The notes under the pieces: model-generated | Databases searched by the model: none | What the model was told of the DNA's origin: nothing | The model's input: only the letters and a program-made list of their open reading frames with translations | Made by a program: the position numbers and the translations under genes | Source: Arsukibacterium sp. | GTDB taxonomy: Bacteria > Pseudomonadota > Gammaproteobacteria > Enterobacterales > Alteromonadaceae | Assembly (NCBI RefSeq): GCF_033722355.1 | Contig: NZ_JAWVZF010000001.1 | Span: 1,785 to 65,784 of the forward strand | Reading direction: 5' to 3' | DNA length: 64,000 bases | Part shown: piece after piece, positions 3,987 through 11,366 of the stretch | Numbering within the stretch: position 1 is the first letter of the stretch | Layout of the letters: each line of letters opens with the position of its first letter

Positions 3987-4559
3987 ATGTCCCACAATAC
4001 CATCACAATAAACCAAAAGCGGCAGCCACTGGACCACCTGCAATCGGTCTGGTTATTCGGCTATGGCTCGTTAATTTATAAAGCTGATTTCCCTTTTCTC
4101 AAGCGTAAGCCCGCTTGTATTTATGGCTGGCAGCGCCGCTTCTGGCAGGGCTCGCATGATCATCGCGGTACGCCGGAGGCACCGGGGCGGGTGCTGACGC
4201 TGACAGAAGCAACGGGCGAACGCTGCGCCGGTATGGCCTATCAGGTTACGCCTGATACCTTTGAGCATCTGGACCACCGTGAGAAAAATGGTTACCTGCG
4301 GGTATTTACTGAACTGCACTGGCTGGACGAACCGGGCCGGCAGGAGGGCCTGGTGTATTTAGCCGGCGCTGATAATGACGCTTATCTGGGGCCGGCCAGT
4401 GACGAGGCAATCGCTGCTCATATTGCTGCAAGCACAGGGCCCAGTGGCCCTAACAGTGAATACTTACTAAAACTGGCTGAGGCGCTGCGGCAAATGAATG
4501 AGCATGATGAGCATGTATTTGCAATCGAGCGCGAGCTGCTAAAATTAGTAAATCGGTAA
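3987..4559 (+). CDS. chaC: Gamma-glutamylcyclotransferase, ChaC family
   Basis: VWLFGYGSLIYK, FWQGSHDHRGTPEAPGRVLTL, LDHREKNGY and GPSGPNSEYL motifs. Confidence 0.9.
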   Translation: MSHNTITINQKRQPLDHLQSVWLFGYGSLIYKADFPFLKRKPACIYGWQRRFWQGSHDHRGTPEAPGRVLTLTEATGERCAGMAYQVTPDTFEHLDHREKNGYLRVFTELHWLDEPGRQEGLVYLAGADNDAYLGPASDEAIAAHIAASTGPSGPNSEYLLKLAEALRQMNEHDEHVFAIERELLKLVNR

Positions 4560-4578: not shown

Positions 4579-5259
4579 ATGTCAGACTCAACAGGTCAGG
4601 TATCAAAAAAAGATATCGTTACGGCACTTTTAGATAACTATGGCGAAACCTACGCACAGGAGCTGTCTGTCAAGCTGGAGAAGGGTACGCCGGCACCGCT
4701 GTTTCAGTGGTTATGTGCCTGCGTGCTTTTCAGTGCCAGAATCAGTAACGATATAGCCAAAGATGCGCTGCGGGCGCTTAAAAAAAGCGGCTGGACCACC
4801 GCAGATAAAATGGCGAAGAGCAACTGGAAGGACCGGGTAAAAACCCTGAATGACGCTGGTTACGCCCGTTTTGACGAGCGCACAGCCACGATGTTGGGTG
4901 ACGTTGCAAACGCCATGCAGGAACACTACAACGGTGATTTACGTAAACTACGTAAGGCAGCGGATCGCGACCCGCAACAGCAGCGCAAGCTGCTGAAGAA
5001 ATTTAAAGGCTTAGGCGATACCGGCGTTGATATTTTTATGCGGGAAGTGCAAGCAATCTGGCAAGAAATTGCACCTTTTGCTGATAAAAAAGCGCTGAAA
5101 GCTGCCGGAAAATTAGAGTTAGCAGACGATGCCGAGCAACTGGCAGAGCTGGTCAGCGATAATAACGAATTAGCAAAGCTATGCACCGCGCTGGTCCGGC
5201 TGGACTTCTCAGGTGACTATGATGAGCTGAGAGAAAAAGCACGGAATGGCGGTTCCTGA
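4579..5259 (+). CDS. HhH-GPD superfamily (endonuclease III-like) protein lacking the 4Fe-4S motif
   Basis: PLFQWLCACVLFSARIS helix, HhH hairpin LKKFKGLGDTGVDIF, downstream PFAD; no C-terminal Cys cluster. Confidence 0.7.
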   Translation: MSDSTGQVSKKDIVTALLDNYGETYAQELSVKLEKGTPAPLFQWLCACVLFSARISNDIAKDALRALKKSGWTTADKMAKSNWKDRVKTLNDAGYARFDERTATMLGDVANAMQEHYNGDLRKLRKAADRDPQQQRKLLKKFKGLGDTGVDIFMREVQAIWQEIAPFADKKALKAAGKLELADDAEQLAELVSDNNELAKLCTALVRLDFSGDYDELREKARNGGS

Positions 5260-5299: not shown

Positions 5300-5824
5300 T
5301 CACGATACCCGGCCAAATTCTTTGGCGACGTCTTTCATGCTGTGATAGGTCTTGTCGCTGAACTGCTTGATAATGGCCATTTGCTCATCATTGGCGTTAT
5401 CACGGGCAAATTGTTTAAGCTCATCGCCACTGGCCGGAAAATCGATACCGGCAAAAACGCTGGCAATATTGGCTGCCGATGCCACTTCCATCGCCCGGGC
5501 GCCGCCTTTTTTACTGGGCTGATCGTCCGGTTTTTCCTGATGGCTGCGCAGACCGCCAAAGGCCCTGCTAACCTCTGCTGCGTCACGGTATTGCTGCTCA
5601 GGCAGCGACTTGATAATCTCAGCAATGTCGCCGGCACGCTCATCATTGTTATCAATGGCGTCTAACAGCTCATCGCGGGAAGCCGGAAACTCAATGCCTT
5701 TCAGGGCTTTTTCAAGATCGGCGGCAGAAATGGCCTGCTTTGGGTGGGACGTCAGCATATGCCGCTCCAGCCTGGATTTCTGCTCAAAGGTGGCATCGCA
5801 AATATCACATGAAAACTGAGCCAT
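5300..5824 (-). CDS. C2H2 zinc finger + two DUF2795-like repeats, uncharacterised
   Basis: FSCDICDATFEQKSRLERHMLTSH = F-x-C-x2-C-x3-F-x5-L-x2-H-x4-H; internal repeats LKGIEFPASRDEL and FAGIDFPASGDEL. Confidence 0.8.
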   Translation of the reverse strand: MAQFSCDICDATFEQKSRLERHMLTSHPKQAISAADLEKALKGIEFPASRDELLDAIDNNDERAGDIAEIIKSLPEQQYRDAAEVSRAFGGLRSHQEKPDDQPSKKGGARAMEVASAANIASVFAGIDFPASGDELKQFARDNANDEQMAIIKQFSDKTYHSMKDVAKEFGRVS

Positions 5825-5825
5825 A

Positions 5826-6821
5826 TTATCTTACCTCCCCAACTGCTTTTTCCAGATCGGCCATCGTTTTGAACTTACGCTCAGGCAGCTCATTTAATAC
5901 CTCAAGAATGTCATCACTGGCATCATGTTCTTCGGCAAACTCCACCACTTCGTCTTTATTTCTGGGAAAATCAATGCCTTTCAGCGCCTTTGCAATGCCG
6001 GCTGCGGAAGCACTGTCCAATGCTGCTTTACCACCACGCCGGCCGCCCTTGCTGGGATCACCACGTGGCTCTTTCGGCTCAAGCTTAAAGTCAGGCGTGG
6101 TAAACTTGCCGTCTTCAATTGAGGCACCGGGCCAGTTTTTTGGTTTTAATCCCAGAGTGTCAAAAAGTGCAGGCTTGCCACTGATGTCAGCTTCGGTTTC
6201 AGCCAAATCATCGTGGGCCCCAATTAATAACAATTGGGCATTTTCGTAATCCAGCAGCCTGGTATCGCTGATATCAATCCAGCGTTTGTCAGCAAATTTT
6301 TCTTTCAGCTGTTGCGGATAGTCAGGTTTCTGATCGGGAAAACCCGGGGCATCAATATCAGGGTTTTTGACCGAAATAACAAAACTGGCCTCGGCTAATA
6401 TCCCAAGCTCTTTTTGAGCTTTGCCCGGTTTATCAGGCTGATGCAGCCGGTAGGCCAGCCTTGTGCTGTCATGGTGTTCAAATATCACGTAGCGGCCAGC
6501 GCCGGCCGGAATCGCTTCACCCTGTTGCCGTTCGCCTTCGGTTGAGGTGTCATATTCTAACGGACCAAGCTCGTTGCCAATCTCTGTTGGGCTGGCCGTC
6601 AGGTAATTCATCATCCATTCTCTTTGGGTCGATTTGGCTGAGCCGTCGCTGATGTCTGGCAGGCGCTTTTTGCCGATAACAAATAGCCGCGCCTTATCAT
6701 CGTTATCTGCCACCATCACCAGATAAAAGCGTTGCACATCATCAATGCTGTTAACCTGTTCGCTGTCAATTTTGCTGCGGTAGAAAAAATAAATATCGCC
6801 CTGTTCAAGGTTTGCTGTCAT
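5826..6821 (-). CDS. Uncharacterised protein with a C-terminal DUF2795-like domain
   Basis: 331-aa ORF with a strong RBS (AGGAGG); C-terminal LKGIDFPRNKDEVVEFA...LPERKFKTMADL; stop lies 1 nt before the next start. Confidence 0.8.
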   Translation of the reverse strand: MTANLEQGDIYFFYRSKIDSEQVNSIDDVQRFYLVMVADNDDKARLFVIGKKRLPDISDGSAKSTQREWMMNYLTASPTEIGNELGPLEYDTSTEGERQQGEAIPAGAGRYVIFEHHDSTRLAYRLHQPDKPGKAQKELGILAEASFVISVKNPDIDAPGFPDQKPDYPQQLKEKFADKRWIDISDTRLLDYENAQLLLIGAHDDLAETEADISGKPALFDTLGLKPKNWPGASIEDGKFTTPDFKLEPKEPRGDPSKGGRRGGKAALDSASAAGIAKALKGIDFPRNKDEVVEFAEEHDASDDILEVLNELPERKFKTMADLEKAVGEVR

Positions 6822-7091
6822 AACGCTGACCTCCTGCTGGCATCAGTCAGAATGTGGGTTCGTGCTGTTAAAACACGGCTTCGTTAATAGCAAAACAGCA
6901 TTCAATAAACATACCAGAACGAACAGAACAAACCGCAGGGTGATAAATCCATTAAAGCGCTGCAGAGCGGGCAAAGCAGGAGCCCGCCCTTGAAAAGACA
7001 GAACGCCGGTAACGCCGATGCGTGTATTATGAAAATATTGCCACCTTAAAGCATTTTTTACCGGTGGCAATCAAAGGGTGTCATCGCGCGA

Positions 7092-10000
7092 TTAGGGGCG
7101 GCCGGCCTCTGCCTGCTGTTTTAACGAGACTTTTTGCCTGCGCCGCCGAAACAGGTTTTTAAGATCTTCCAGGATCAGATAGAAGCAAGGTACCAGGATC
7201 AACGTAATTAAGGTGGCGAACAGCACCGCAAAACTCAGCGATATTGCCATTGGAATAACAAACTGTGCTTGCAGGCTGGTTTCAAACATTATTGGCACTA
7301 AGCCAAAGAAGGTGGTTAGTGACGTTAACAAGATAGCCCGAAAGCGCATACTGCCGGCAGAGATAATACTGTCTCTTAATGATAAACCTCTGTCCCGGGC
7401 CTGGTTAACATAATCGGTAAACACCAGACTGTCGTTAATGACTACCCCAGCCGCGGCAATCATGCCGAAGAAGGAGAACAGCGACAAGTCAAAGCCAAGG
7501 AAGAAGTGTGCCCATAATGCCCCTGTCATGCCAAATGGGATCACTGACATAATGATCACCGGCTGACTGTAGCTTTTCAGCGGAATCGCCAACAGGATAT
7601 AAACCAACAGCAAACCGGCTATCATATACAACAACATTTGGTTGCGTTGTTTTTGCTGCTCTTCTATCTGCCCACCCAGTTCCGATTTAACCCCGGGAAA
7701 CCGTTCCAGTAAATCTGGCATAATATCGGTTTTTACCAGCTTCACTACCTCAGACGTTGTCACCTGCTGTTGATCAACACTGGCTTCAATCCGCACATTT
7801 CTGAAACCGGCCTCGCGGTTAATCCGTGAAATTCCGGGTGACTCGGTAATATCAGCAACATCACCCAGCATCACAAAGTCTCCGCTGGGCAGTTTCAGGC
7901 GGGTGCGCTGAAGCGACGCCACCTGTTGCCGTTGTTCTTTCGGATACCGCACCATAACCCGCACTTCATCACCGTCGCGGATCATTCGCTGCGCTTCTAT
8001 ACCATAAAAACTGTAACCCACCTGCTGCGCCAGCCAGGTAGGTGTTAAACCCAGCTGATGGGCCAGCGGCTTTAATTCCAGGTTAAGCTCTTTGCTGCCT
8101 GAATCGATGCTGGAGCCTAAGTCATAAACACCGGGTATATTGCTTAATTCGCTGATTAGCGCATGGCCGGCCGCGTTTAGCTGATCTATGTCGGTACCGT
8201 ACAAACGATAGCCCAGTTCCCGCTGCTCGCCGCCACTGAATAAATCATCCCTGACCTGAATTGTTCGCACCCCGGCCAGTTCAGGTAAGCTTTCCCGCCA
8301 GCGGCGCCCCAGTTCAAAGGCTTTAATAGGCCGCTCTTCTTCGTCCACCAGCGTGACTAACACGGTACCACTGGTCTGATTGTTCAGCCAGGCCATCACA
8401 TGTTTGATCATCGGTTTGCCGCTTTGCTCTAACACCAACGTTTCCTGCTGATAAACAAGTTGCTCAAGCTGTTGCAGAATCGCCAGGCTTTGCTGCTCAG
8501 AGGCGTTCTGATGCATTTCGAAGCGTATTTCCGGATAGTCATGCGGTACAGGCGGGGTCATTACCGTACGGATATGGTTGGCAGAAATTAAGCCAAAGCC
8601 GCTGAGCAGGATGCCAAAAAACACCCCCAAAGTGGCATAACGATGCGCCATGCAAGCTTGCAAAAACGGTTGATAGCGCCCTTCAATAAAGCTCTGAAAG
8701 CCCTTGTTAAAACGCATACGCCAGCCATTTTCCGGCACCGGTTTTAATTTCGCATGCGCTAAATGAGCTGGCAATATCAGTTTTGATTCAACCAGGCTGA
8801 AAAACAAACAACACACGACCACAATAGAAATAACTTTAAATTCATTGGCCTCTATACTATTGCCCAGCATAAACGGAGCGAATACCGCCATGGTAGTTAA
8901 TACACCAAAGGTTGCCGGGGTGGCTACCCGCTGCGCGCCGCGGATAATATTGTCAATACTATGGCCTTGCAGCTCAGTTTCATGATAAGCACTTTCGCCT
9001 ATAACAATAGCGTCATCGACGACAATACCGAGCACCATAATAAACGCGAATAAACTGATAATATTGATAGTGACACCGGCGAAAGGCATCAGCCAGATAG
9101 CCCCCAGAAAGGCAATGGGTAAACCGAGCATAACCCAGAAAGCGACTTTGAAGCGTAAAAACAGCATCAGCATTAAAAACACCAGTACCGCCCCCTGCAG
9201 CAGGTTGCTCCACATCATATTCAAACGGCCATTCAGGTAATATGTCATATCGACCAGGCTGTGCAGCTGGTAGTCACCCTGCAATTGCTTATTTTTAAAC
9301 TCAACATATTGTTGTACGCTGGCAGCAACATCAGGCAACGACTGCGTTGCTGAGGCTTTCACTGCCATAAATGCTGCCGGTTTGCCGTCGTAACGCATAT
9401 AGTTAATACGCTCTTCAAAACCGTCATAGATGTTAGCGATATCAGCCAACCGGATCTGTTCGCCCTGCGGCCCGGTTATTATGGGCAGCGCGGCAAATTC
9501 ATCAGCCCGATAGGCCCGCTGTTCAGAGCGGATGGTAATCATGCCGGCGTCAGCGCGGATCATCCCGGCAGATACATTGTCAGAATGCTGCGCAATCGCC
9601 CTGCTGATATCCTGTAAACTGATGTTGTAACGCTCAAGTGTCGCCGGCTCAATTTCAATACCTATTTCCCAGGCCGGCATTGCATCAAAATCAACAAAAC
9701 TAATATTCTCCAGTTGCAGCAATTCGTTCTTGATTTGCCGTCCCATTGCTTTTAGCGCCAGTTGATCCTCAGTTCCGGTCAGCACCAGATTTACCGCGTC
9801 CTGGCGCCACTCCACCTGATAAATTGTTAGCGGCTCCATCGCGCTGGGGAAGGTACTGATGGCATCCATTTTCAGTTTTACCTGATCCAGCCGGGATGAA
9901 ATATCGGTGCCGGGCACCAGCTCAATACTGACCCGGCCACCACCGCGCCAGGCATTGCTGCGATAACGCTTAATACCTTCAATATCGGTCAGGGCTTCTT

Positions 10001-10220
10001 CAATTTTAATCAGGATGCCTTCTTCAATTTCCTGAGGCGCAGCGCCGCGAAAAGTGGCATTAACATGAATATAATTGACTTCTACTGAGGGAAACATTTG
10101 CCGCTGCATGGTGGCATAGGTAACCAGCCCCATAACGACAATAAAAACCATCAGCAAATTAGCGGCAACGCTGTTACGGGCAAACCAGGCAATAATGCCT
10201 TTATCAGGATTATAAGGCAT
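7092..10220 (-). CDS. RND efflux transporter permease (AcrB/AcrD/AcrF family)
   Basis: 1042 aa with two periplasmic loops; GIVVDDAIVIGE (TM4), GVVINDSLV (TM10), RFRAILLTSLTT motifs. Confidence 0.93.
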   Translation of the reverse strand: MPYNPDKGIIAWFARNSVAANLLMVFIVVMGLVTYATMQRQMFPSVEVNYIHVNATFRGAAPQEIEEGILIKIEEALTDIEGIKRYRSNAWRGGGRVSIELVPGTDISSRLDQVKLKMDAISTFPSAMEPLTIYQVEWRQDAVNLVLTGTEDQLALKAMGRQIKNELLQLENISFVDFDAMPAWEIGIEIEPATLERYNISLQDISRAIAQHSDNVSAGMIRADAGMITIRSEQRAYRADEFAALPIITGPQGEQIRLADIANIYDGFEERINYMRYDGKPAAFMAVKASATQSLPDVAASVQQYVEFKNKQLQGDYQLHSLVDMTYYLNGRLNMMWSNLLQGAVLVFLMLMLFLRFKVAFWVMLGLPIAFLGAIWLMPFAGVTINIISLFAFIMVLGIVVDDAIVIGESAYHETELQGHSIDNIIRGAQRVATPATFGVLTTMAVFAPFMLGNSIEANEFKVISIVVVCCLFFSLVESKLILPAHLAHAKLKPVPENGWRMRFNKGFQSFIEGRYQPFLQACMAHRYATLGVFFGILLSGFGLISANHIRTVMTPPVPHDYPEIRFEMHQNASEQQSLAILQQLEQLVYQQETLVLEQSGKPMIKHVMAWLNNQTSGTVLVTLVDEEERPIKAFELGRRWRESLPELAGVRTIQVRDDLFSGGEQRELGYRLYGTDIDQLNAAGHALISELSNIPGVYDLGSSIDSGSKELNLELKPLAHQLGLTPTWLAQQVGYSFYGIEAQRMIRDGDEVRVMVRYPKEQRQQVASLQRTRLKLPSGDFVMLGDVADITESPGISRINREAGFRNVRIEASVDQQQVTTSEVVKLVKTDIMPDLLERFPGVKSELGGQIEEQQKQRNQMLLYMIAGLLLVYILLAIPLKSYSQPVIIMSVIPFGMTGALWAHFFLGFDLSLFSFFGMIAAAGVVINDSLVFTDYVNQARDRGLSLRDSIISAGSMRFRAILLTSLTTFFGLVPIMFETSLQAQFVIPMAISLSFAVLFATLITLILVPCFYLILEDLKNLFRRRRQKVSLKQQAEAGRP

Positions 10221-10223
10221 GAT

Positions 10224-11366
10224 TTACTCCGCTTTTACCAGCTCACTGTCGCTTTGTGCCGTGCGCACCACCATACCCGGCTGCGGGAAATTGGGTACCG
10301 TTAAGATAAGCTGCTGACCATCAGTTAGCCCGGCTTTGACATAAGCTGATTTACCAATCTGGCGGATAACTTCGACCTCTTGCTGAGCCATGGTCATATC
10401 CGGTTGCAACAGCCAGACTTTACCGTCGGATAATGCGTCTTGCGGAATGGTGTAAAGCTTATCTTCAACCCGCCCGGCCAGACGCACTTCAACATATTGG
10501 CCAAACCGGATCACCGGTTGCTGGCTTCGCACCGCATAAGGGTCGTCAAGTTGCACCACCAGATGGCTCATTCGGGTCTGGCTGTCAACCACTCCCAAAT
10601 CACGTACCACTTTAGCTTCGCGACTAAACTGATCAGTTCTCAGCTGAGCCGGTATACCTGCGCGCTCTGCAGGTAAATAAGCCAGATCGAAACTGGCAAC
10701 AGGGACATACAACTCTGCCTGCTCTACGCTGTAGAGTTCGCCTAACGCAGTGCCAGTGCTTACCACCTGCCCTAAGCCAATATTGCGATTGACCACCAGG
10801 GCATCGTAAGGGGCGGTAATTCGGGTTCGCTCTAAATCACGTTGCGCTTTCTGCAGGGATGCCTGAGCCGATTTTAACGCCGCTTCTGCACTTAGCAGCT
10901 GAGGCTGGCGCAATGCCAGAGCGGTTATTTGATCACGGGACAAATGCCTTAATTCCTGCTCTGCCACCCGGGCTTGCGCCTGCTCCTGTGAAAGCGCCGA
11001 TTCGGCACTGGCAACGGCCGCCTGCGCGCTGAGTAAGGCAACCTGATAATCGGAATCATCCAGTTGTACCAGCACCGTGCCTTTGGCAACAACGCCACCG
11101 GCGATAAAGTTCGGATCTAAATTGATAACCCGTCCCGACACTTCAGGTGTTAAGGTGGTTTTCTCTTTGGGTTTCACTTCTGCCCAGAGTTGCAGCTCGA
11201 AACGATGCGGCTGGGCCTGCAATGTTTGTGTAACGACCAGCGGGGCCAGCGATCCTGACTTATCTTTTTGCAGTGGGGGGGTCGCTGTAGCCTGTATCGC
11301 AATAAATACCCCTATTGCCAACCCGAATACGCCTGCCGCAAACAGCCCTTTTTGCCAAGTTTTCAT
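10224..11366 (-). CDS. RND efflux periplasmic adaptor (membrane fusion protein)
   Basis: N-terminal TM anchor, lipoyl halves (PEVSGRV...GGVVAKGTVLVQLD; ITAPYDALV), alpha hairpin; 3 nt upstream of the permease. Confidence 0.92.
   Translation of the reverse strand: MKTWQKGLFAAGVFGLAIGVFIAIQATATPPLQKDKSGSLAPLVVTQTLQAQPHRFELQLWAEVKPKEKTTLTPEVSGRVINLDPNFIAGGVVAKGTVLVQLDDSDYQVALLSAQAAVASAESALSQEQAQARVAEQELRHLSRDQITALALRQPQLLSAEAALKSAQASLQKAQRDLERTRITAPYDALVVNRNIGLGQVVSTGTALGELYSVEQAELYVPVASFDLAYLPAERAGIPAQLRTDQFSREAKVVRDLGVVDSQTRMSHLVVQLDDPYAVRSQQPVIRFGQYVEVRLAGRVEDKLYTIPQDALSDGKVWLLQPDMTMAQQEVEVIRQIGKSAYVKAGLTDGQQLILTVPNFPQPGMVVRTAQSDSELVKAE

Follow-up and report, generated by a model that had tools for sequence, protein, structure and literature searches.

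A beta-barrel of an unnamed protein family, fused to DUF2795 and paired with a zinc-finger protein in Arsukibacterium: a possibly re-tooled phosphoesterase-like domain

What kind of protein results when a long N-terminal region of no named family is joined to a DUF2795 tail, and why should its gene stand directly before another that carries DUF2795 repeats of its own? This question is raised by a gene for a 331-residue protein in Arsukibacterium sp. (assembly GCF_033722355.1), located in the window analyzed here, a stretch of 64,000 nucleotides of contig NZ_JAWVZF010000001.1 (positions 1,785 to 65,784). A preliminary description, made from the letters alone, had proposed a domain of about 270 residues fused to a DUF2795-like tail, and had likened that domain to an uncharacterized family. 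The answer at which we arrive, and to which we give slightly less than an even chance, is that the N-terminal region is a phosphoesterase-like barrel that has been re-tooled, has possibly lost catalysis, and works together in a complex with the zinc-finger protein encoded by the following gene. We refer to the 2 genes together as the cassette (Table 1).

The 331-residue open reading frame (ORF) opens with ATG on the minus strand. A word-indexed search found 790 homologs, nearly all of them 327 to 337 residues long and of unchanged architecture, and because of these the gene is clearly real and under selection. Identity to the 331-residue protein is 85-88% in other Arsukibacterium and about 60% in the Halomonadaceae Chromohalobacter, Halomonas, Vreelandella, and Billgrantia, and the same search returned homologs from Bowmanella and from metagenome-assembled genomes (MAGs) labelled Myxococcota and Nanoarchaeota. 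The sequence is already in public databases as a "DUF2795 domain-containing protein," so that no novelty attaches to the gene as such. Apparently undescribed, by contrast, are the family of its N-terminal domain (hereafter N-domain) across the three domains of life, the predicted fold resembling the LigD 3'-phosphoesterase (PE), the His/Glu/Arg cluster with its replacement, and the cassette of zinc finger and DUF2795.

An AlphaFold2 model computed from a 30-sequence alignment of the fused clade, i.e., the proteins that carry the tail, has a mean predicted local distance difference test score (pLDDT) of 85. Residues 4-203 form about 11 strands in it, and after these come short helices, a linker predicted to be disordered (pLDDT < 50 for residues 251-264), and a four-helix DUF2795 region whose helices span residues 273-330. 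This agrees with the beta-rich, globular character ascribed to the N-terminal region beforehand, and the motifs then quoted are all present in the translation: LEQGDIYFFYR (5-15), DDVQRFYLV (27-35), RLFVIGKKRLP (45-55), GAGRYVI (107-113), LAYRLHQP (122-129), EASFVISVKNP (144-154), and LLDYENAQLLLIGA (189-202). The boundary between the parts had to be moved. The tail stands at residues 272-323, where Pfam gives DUF2795 60 bits against a gathering cut-off of 25 (E = 2.1e-16) and the genome scan confirms it, but the folded N-domain stops near residue 245, and the two are separated by a basic linker in which G259, G260, G263, and G264 are invariant across the fused clade. The N-domain (calculated isoelectric point about 4.7, family median 5.6-5.8) and DUF2795 (4.6) are both acidic. 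No significant Pfam match was found for residues 1-270 and the NCBIfam scan was empty; a single row for DUF3105 (E = 0.13) was dismissed.

How far this N-domain extends was determined by an exhaustive phmmer search with residues 1-270 over 1.84 billion cluster representatives (50%-identity clusters), which returned 1147 clusters at E<=1e-3, of which 633 also pass E<=1e-10. The 331-residue protein matches the alignment-defined family of about 245 residues over the full length of the domain, with the consensus LExGxIYFFYRPK ... VGxKxLP ... YxTKTRGxR ... GEGxYxI ... VKNP ... LDYEGAELxLIGA. Most clusters are stand-alone proteins of 245-260 residues. Among species genomes, stand-alone copies are found in many Nitrososphaeraceae and Nitrosocosmicus, some of these MAGs having four or more paralogs (in GS_HAYS_MAG_00068, at least four copies lie on separate contigs), and further hosts are Planctomycetota, Desulfuromonadales, Solirubrobacteraceae, Rubrobacter, Kofleriaceae, Anaeromyxobacter, and Mycoavidus. 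A second group carries N-terminal extensions of 100-400 residues and is eukaryotic, as established by exact look-up and a second search. Its members include the chytrids Rhizophlyctis, Geranomyces, Spizellomyces, and Gaertneriomyces, Geosiphon of the Glomeromycota, the Mucoromycota Endogone, Jimgerdemannia, and Gongronella, the Ascomycota Polytolypa and Sodiomyces, and many Basidiomycota, together with the green algae Pleodorina, Parachlorella, and Chlorella and the amoeba Balamuthia. The extensions are rich in K/R/E/S and typically start M-P-x-K-R-K, a composition suggestive of nuclear targeting. The proposed family of fungi and scattered bacteria and archaea is thus borne out and widened: it spans Nitrososphaeria, scattered bacterial phyla, and four fungal phyla as well as algae and Balamuthia, and in this breadth across bacteria, archaea, and eukaryotes, as in the lack of a confident sequence match to a characterized enzyme family, the earlier proposal has held.

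The ESM Atlas yielded unnamed clusters and one DUF2795-fused cluster of Nitrososphaerota and nothing else, and no homolog was found in plasmid and phage records. In its own surroundings, the 331-residue gene is carried by 3 of 25 Arsukibacterium genomes and by none of the 16 other genera sampled in the order, which marks it as accessory and patchy. The Mycoavidus copy comes from a MAG of M. cysteinexigens (L075), an obligate fungal endosymbiont, and the family is common in early-diverging fungi; this copy does not group with fungi in the tree, so host-symbiont transfer is without evidence.

As the preliminary description had expected, the N-domain usually occurs without DUF2795: by motif, 125 of 139 representatives of at least 200 residues lack the tail. 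The fused form is nonetheless common in its own right, with hundreds of sequences, and it is here that the neighboring gene becomes relevant. We examined 82 loci, 48 with a close homolog (at least 45% identity) and 34 with a stand-alone member. The DUF2795 tail is present in all 48 of the former and none of the latter, and an ORF with C2H2 and DUF2795 domains lies directly downstream on the same strand in 41 of the 48 fused loci versus 0 of 34 stand-alone ones. In four clusters (P0124, P0137, P0147, and P0268), a single polypeptide joins the barrel, DUF2795, C2H2, and 2 further DUF2795 units, and P0130 and P0132 are further variants. DUF2795 and C2H2 are the only recognizable domain partners of the N-domain family, and the suggestion that the fusion ties the family to the neighboring repeat protein is upheld by the paired loci and the single chains alike. 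In Arsukibacterium, the partner ORF begins 1 nucleotide past the stop codon of the 331-residue gene, and the three DUF2795 units found in the 3.0-Mb genome are all in the cassette (1 + 2); no second N-domain copy was found in this genome. Across the neighborhoods of 80 loci, no conserved flanking gene was found beyond the partner, and flanks are conserved within genera only.

When only the barrel is used, a maximum-likelihood tree (96 rows, 211 columns) places all 32 fused sequences inside one 33-row group, so that the fusion label needs only 2 changes, which is compatible with a single origin of the DUF2795 fusion. The 331-residue protein lies in a 26-row crown clade supported by a Shimodaira-Hasegawa-like approximate likelihood ratio (SH-aLRT) of 97%, and a 95% split divides the fused forms, Nitrososphaeria, and Rubrobacter from the other stand-alone members and the eukaryotes. 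The locus pairing, the single-chain fusions, and the tree together identify the two-gene cassette as the unit of inheritance. Other long fusions were sought and only a fungal allantoinase merge, a gene-model matter, was found; apparent fusions to uroporphyrinogen-III synthase, SURF4-like, or allantoinase domains in fungal and algal members (P0348, P0351, P0350, and P0384) are probably gene-model merges.

Over the 139 representatives, fused and stand-alone proteins alike conserve E6, G8, F12, Y14, R15, K17, D28, Q30, R31, R45, K52, P55, R67, W69, Y90, T92, T94, G96, R98, Y111, Y124, Q136, K152, N153, P154, F176, and R180, all of which the 331-residue protein carries, and 25 N-domain positions are invariant in the 30-sequence fused-clade alignment. 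A second set of seven positions, six of them on the beta6-beta7 hairpin, forms a His/Glu/Arg cluster in stand-alone prokaryotes (Table 1). Eukaryotes largely agree (R104 in 16/19, H121 in 16/19, E196 in 15/19). In the fused set, the own protein's row excluded, R104 is found in 0 of 31 and H121 in 2 of 31, and Q196 stands in 29 of 31. In the crown fused clade, position 104 is I/V/A/L, 119 is mostly S, 121 is E/R/Q, and 196 is Q, and an almost invariant R110 has been gained (at least 90% in the 30-sequence alignment); the 331-residue protein itself reads I104, A108, H116, S119, R121, H127, and Q196 and has R110. Nitrososphaeria and basal fused forms are intermediates, with R/H/K104, H116, H119, E121, E127, and Q196. 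The change amounts to coordinated remodelling and not random decay, one that coincides in the phylogeny with gaining DUF2795 and the zinc-finger partner.

Table 1. Coordinates of the cassette features in the window, with the residues of the stand-alone cluster
Feature	Position	Strand	Basis or count
Whole gene, 331 residues: N-terminal barrel, basic linker, DUF2795	5826..6821	-	ORF, homologs, AlphaFold model
Shine-Dalgarno AGGAGG	6830-6835	-	Read from sequence; 8 nt 5' of ATG
N-domain, residues 1-245, beta-barrel of unnamed family	6087..6821	-	
beta6-beta7 hairpin, residues 104-128	6438..6512	-	Strands 104-116 and 119-128 in model; column statistics
Basic Gly-rich linker, residues 246-271, isoelectric point ~10	6009..6086	-	Fused-clade alignment, pLDDT, isoelectric point
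KGG-like SKGGRRGGK of linker	6030-6056	-	Resembles KGG stress-protein repeats
DUF2795 (PF11387), residues 272-323, four predicted helices	5853..6008	-	Pfam and own-genome scan
Cassette partner, 174 residues	5300..5824	-	ORF; own GGGAGG
Partner C2H2 zinc finger, classical, residues 4-27	5744..5815	-	Pfam zf-C2H2, 26.2 bits, E 9.9e-6
Partner DUF2795 domain 1	5567..5728	-	Pfam and own-genome scan
Partner KGG-like motif SKKGGAR	5495-5515	-	Sequence
Partner DUF2795 domain 2, second KGG-like SKKGG motif before domain	5324..5479	-	Pfam and own-genome scan
Cluster residue R104			Stand-alone prokaryotes 39/40
Cluster residue E108			Stand-alone prokaryotes 34/40
Cluster residue H116			Stand-alone prokaryotes 31/40
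Cluster residue H119			Stand-alone prokaryotes 32/40
Cluster residue H121			Stand-alone prokaryotes 33/40
Cluster residue E127			Stand-alone prokaryotes 27/40
Cluster residue E196			Stand-alone prokaryotes 35/40

What such a barrel might do was approached through its predicted fold. An independent model of the stand-alone protein P0144 from a 61-sequence alignment (pLDDT 94.7, predicted template modelling score 0.91) shows its elements in the same order as that of the fused clade. In these models, the predicted fold appears to come closest to the eight-stranded antiparallel barrel of the LigD PE and of stand-alone archaeal PEs (as in PaePE, CkoPE, and MbaPE), triphosphate-tunnel metalloenzymes (TTM) being more distant. 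Foldseek against the PDB gave nothing at E<=0.001 for either model (Spike and carbohydrate-binding module rows were noise), and PDB sequence and profile searches with the fused-clade and family alignments returned chance matches only (SMARCC1, E = 1.6; a bromodomain, E = 0.31) and no PE. LigD_N (PF13298) had no Pfam match at E<=1, and hhalign of either family alignment against ten genome-derived LigD_N sequences gave probabilities of 1-1.6%. Because LigD_N and hhalign are negative, the N-domain is treated as a domain that folds like, and may work like, the LigD PE, and not as a member of that family. A local hhalign pairing of the HTHLAY strand with the "LHYDFRLE" strand of LigD was rejected at a probability of 1.6%, as was a cupin-like HxH...E...G motif, in which the spacing differs and for which no cupin appeared among the fold matches.

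In the LigD PE, the inside of the barrel is hydrophobic and the site that binds metal and phosphate is a hydrophilic one on the outer surface, where two His and an Asp bind Mn, an Arg and a His bind phosphate, and a Tyr takes part; in PaePE this set is H42, H48, D50, R52, H84, and Y88, and the first Mn-binding His is H9 in Cko, H36 in Mba, and H42 in Pae (PMC3082917). The beta6-beta7 hairpin of the N-domain could follow the same plan. Its two strands are joined by a two-residue turn in the models, which would put residues 104, 108, 110, 116, 119, 121, and 127 on one face and the hydrophobic Y111, I113, L122, Y124, and L126 on the other. A second candidate site may lie on beta1, since all alignments of the P0144 model that open at its residue 8 (3p4h, 3n9b_A, 3p43, and 3n9d) start at PE residues 1, 34, 28, and 34, which are mutually consistent registers. 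Provided that beta1 has no gap, the His that is first in binding Mn would fall on the family-conserved R15. The differences are also considerable. The PE structures (PDB 3N9B, 3N9D, 3P43, and 3P4H) comprise about 120-150 residues versus 245 for the N-domain, which adds strands and a helical C-terminal part, and the PE catalytic set is not recognizable in it: the His cluster of canonical members is another one and lies on beta6-beta7; in the fused clade there is none. No invariant or nearly invariant His, and thus no counterpart of the LigD PE Mn site, was found in the 30-sequence fused-clade alignment.

The more distant resemblance to TTM enzymes allows another proposal, that the barrel is a CYTH/TTM-type enzyme or binder for nucleoside triphosphates, polyphosphate, or RNA 5' ends and not an enzyme with a LigD-PE-like surface site. 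Members of that superfamily (CyaB, YgiF, NeuTTM, and Cet1-type RNA triphosphatases) are recognized by ExExK on beta1 together with a charged tunnel interior, a combination not seen in the N-domain, which has no ExExK. We consider this proposal very improbable.

Our preferred reading is that of a re-tooled barrel. The ancestral N-domain family would have been a metal-dependent phosphoesterase or phosphate-handling enzyme whose site included the His/Glu/Arg cluster on one face of the hairpin. In the derived clade, R104 has given way to a conserved hydrophobic residue, H119 to S, H121 to R/E/Q, and E196 to Q, with R110 and DUF2795 gained, and the clade has become locked into a translationally coupled two-gene cassette with the C2H2 + 2xDUF2795 protein. 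The fused-clade barrel has most likely lost the ancestral metal chemistry and may instead serve to bind or recognize a ligand, probably one that bears phosphate or the end of a nucleic acid, while it retains the family-wide R15/K17/D28/Q30/R31/R45/K52 set. The present-day product is a cytoplasmic protein of three parts: a beta-barrel of about 245 residues, a basic linker of KGG-like character, and DUF2795 as a module of four helices. It would form a heteromeric complex with the zinc-finger partner, in which the shared DUF2795 modules would mediate assembly and the hydrophobic residue conserved at position 104 could be part of a new interface between proteins. Weak hints toward nucleic acids come from the C2H2 partner, the basic "KRK" eukaryotic extensions, four RadA/Rad51 neighbors, and the HhH-GPD-like neighbor here and in Marivita.

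Several observations weigh against this picture. RadA and HhH genes adjoin the family's genes in few loci and over a narrow phylogenetic range, and the neighbors of stand-alone members are mixed (PFOR, MTHFR, CMD, phosphodiesterase, TatD, and transposase) with no theme. The N-domain and DUF2795 are acidic, unlike typical DNA binders. The own-genome scan found no LigD_N, Ku not having been searched for. Finally, it is from geometry, in predicted models, that R15 is placed at the metal site of the PE and that the His cluster is taken to point outward.

The same conserved residues can be read in the opposite direction, with the 331-residue protein still an active enzyme: the family-wide polar set would form its active site, the His cluster would have an accessory role or set specificity, and DUF2795 and the partner would only target or regulate it. 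E6, R15, K17, D28, Q30, R31, R45, K52, R67, Y90, T92, R98, Y124, N153, and R180 are conserved in both groups, the position suggested for R15 by the alignment start would put it at the first metal-binding His of the LigD PE, and the invariant N-domain positions indicate strong purifying selection in the fused clade. However, the fused clade is without a His/Asp metal triad, a site of Arg and Lys only with no obvious nucleophile or metal ligands would be unusual for a phosphoesterase, and the coordinated replacement at seven cluster positions suggests a functional shift. We regard an active enzyme as rather unlikely and keep the re-tooled barrel as the preferred reading.

The DUF2795 modules and their linkers bring in a further possibility. 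Residues 272-323 and the two partner units are bona fide members of PF11387; most DUF2795 proteins are small and stand-alone, whereas here the domain is appended to a 245-residue barrel. No solved DUF2795 structure was found by PDB sequence search, and the two papers found to mention DUF2795 do so in proteomics lists only; in one of them, 0.37% of the proteome of Nitrosospira multiformis is accounted for by a DUF2795 protein (PMC5960693). The cassette could be a general-stress or osmoprotective, hydrophilin-like system in which the KGG-like motifs and acidic DUF2795 are protective or chaperone-like and the barrel is a ligand-binding or sensor module. This would suit the short basic, Gly-rich SKGGxRGG before each DUF2795 unit, which recalls the KGG stress proteins (YciG/GsiB type, PF10685), the acidic modules, the abundance of the N. 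multiformis protein, and the patchy occurrence of the gene in its genus. The fused-clade hosts (Halomonadaceae, Chromohalobacter, Arsukibacterium, and hypersaline-mat Rhodobacteraceae) are also mostly halophiles or taxa of saline habitats, a bias that is an impression from names. In KGG proteins, however, the repeats are in tandem, while each unit here has one motif between folded domains, and PF10685 is unmatched in both cassette proteins even at E<=1. The barrel, being well folded and highly conserved and having many invariant polar residues, does not resemble a hydrophilin, and the C2H2 finger would be left unexplained. A stress system of this kind seems improbable to us.

In another reading, the pair would be a transcription-regulatory module, the C2H2 protein binding promoter DNA and the barrel, with a Med18/Med20-like fold and the "BTB" label of its fungal relatives, acting as a co-regulator or protein-interaction domain. 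In a PDB sequence search, the partner finger matches those of ZBTB20, ZFP91, and CTCF. Eukaryotic members of the family are annotated as "hypothetical" or, by a transferred name, as "BTB domain transcription factor," but no BTB or other Pfam domain was found at E<=0.01 in P0208, P0142, P0184, P0194, P0243, or P0148. With no BTB/POZ domain detectable in the fungal and Balamuthia homologs or in any other member, the name is probably an annotation artefact, and a literature search for it found only unrelated metazoan work. The likeness to Med18/20 is weak, sequence-specific binding is seldom achieved by one finger alone, and most family members are without a DNA-binding partner. The chance that the pair regulates transcription in this way is very small.

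Around the cassette, no Rfam elements and no above-chance promoter or terminator signals were found. Upstream, on the same strand, lie the AcrB/HlyD efflux pair, an Orn/Lys/Arg decarboxylase gene, Der, and BamB. The resistance-nodulation-division (RND) efflux pair, HlyD (380 residues) and AcrB (1042 residues), occupies 7092-11366 (-), with the cassette on one side and the decarboxylase gene on the other; loci L005-L008, from four other Arsukibacterium genomes, have the decarboxylase gene (97-98% identical) immediately upstream of the cassette, so the pair is an insertion or deletion here. On the downstream side, two genes are convergent with the cassette, an ORF with weak HhH-GPD/Ogg-like matches and then a ChaC gene. 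The former (226 residues, 4579-5259 (+)) matches Ogg-HhH at E = 0.0011 in Pfam and N-glycosylase/DNA lyase at E = 1.7e-5 in NCBIfam, both below the family cut-offs. In a Marivita MAG (L051, 9614-10252), a 50%-identical HhH-GPD-like homolog shares the strand of the cassette and stands directly behind it; a general three-gene module with this ORF was rejected, as it recurs in 1 of 47 other fused loci, that of Marivita. The ChaC-family gamma-glutamylcyclotransferase gene (3987-4559 (+), Pfam E = 5e-53) is conserved close to the cassette in L007 and L008, two further Arsukibacterium genomes, where the intervening genes differ. Among stand-alone members, a RadA/Rad51 recombinase gene (Pfam Rad51, E = 1e-72) adjoins the N-domain gene divergently in four Thermoproteota/Nitrososphaeria MAG loci (L054, L056, L058, and L065).

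Taken at its widest, the N-domain would be an unrecognized enzyme family of all three domains of life, a structurally distant branch of the LigD-PE or tunnel-type phosphoesterase barrels that has a His-cluster metal site of its own and acts on nucleotides or on the ends of DNA or RNA, and the fused clade would be the pseudoenzyme recognition subunit of a zinc-finger/DUF2795 complex that possibly protects or repairs nucleic acids under salt or desiccation stress. We put this forward as a speculative extension that is rather unlikely to hold in full. With more than 1000 50%-identity clusters, drawn from bacteria, ammonia-oxidizing archaea, fungi, algae, and amoebae, and no Pfam model, the family is a sizeable piece of protein "dark matter," and should the phosphoesterase idea be true, its stand-alone and DUF2795-fused clades would offer a natural contrast of enzyme and pseudoenzyme. 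Should it fail, relatedness to DNA-end repair would fall with it, and the family would still be a clean target for structure-function work. Through the cassette and its Rosetta-stone fusions, DUF2795, which is widespread and in some cases very abundant, acquires a first functional partner, and if the fused barrel is indeed a pseudoenzyme within a complex, DUF2795 would gain its first functional context, as a heteromerization module.

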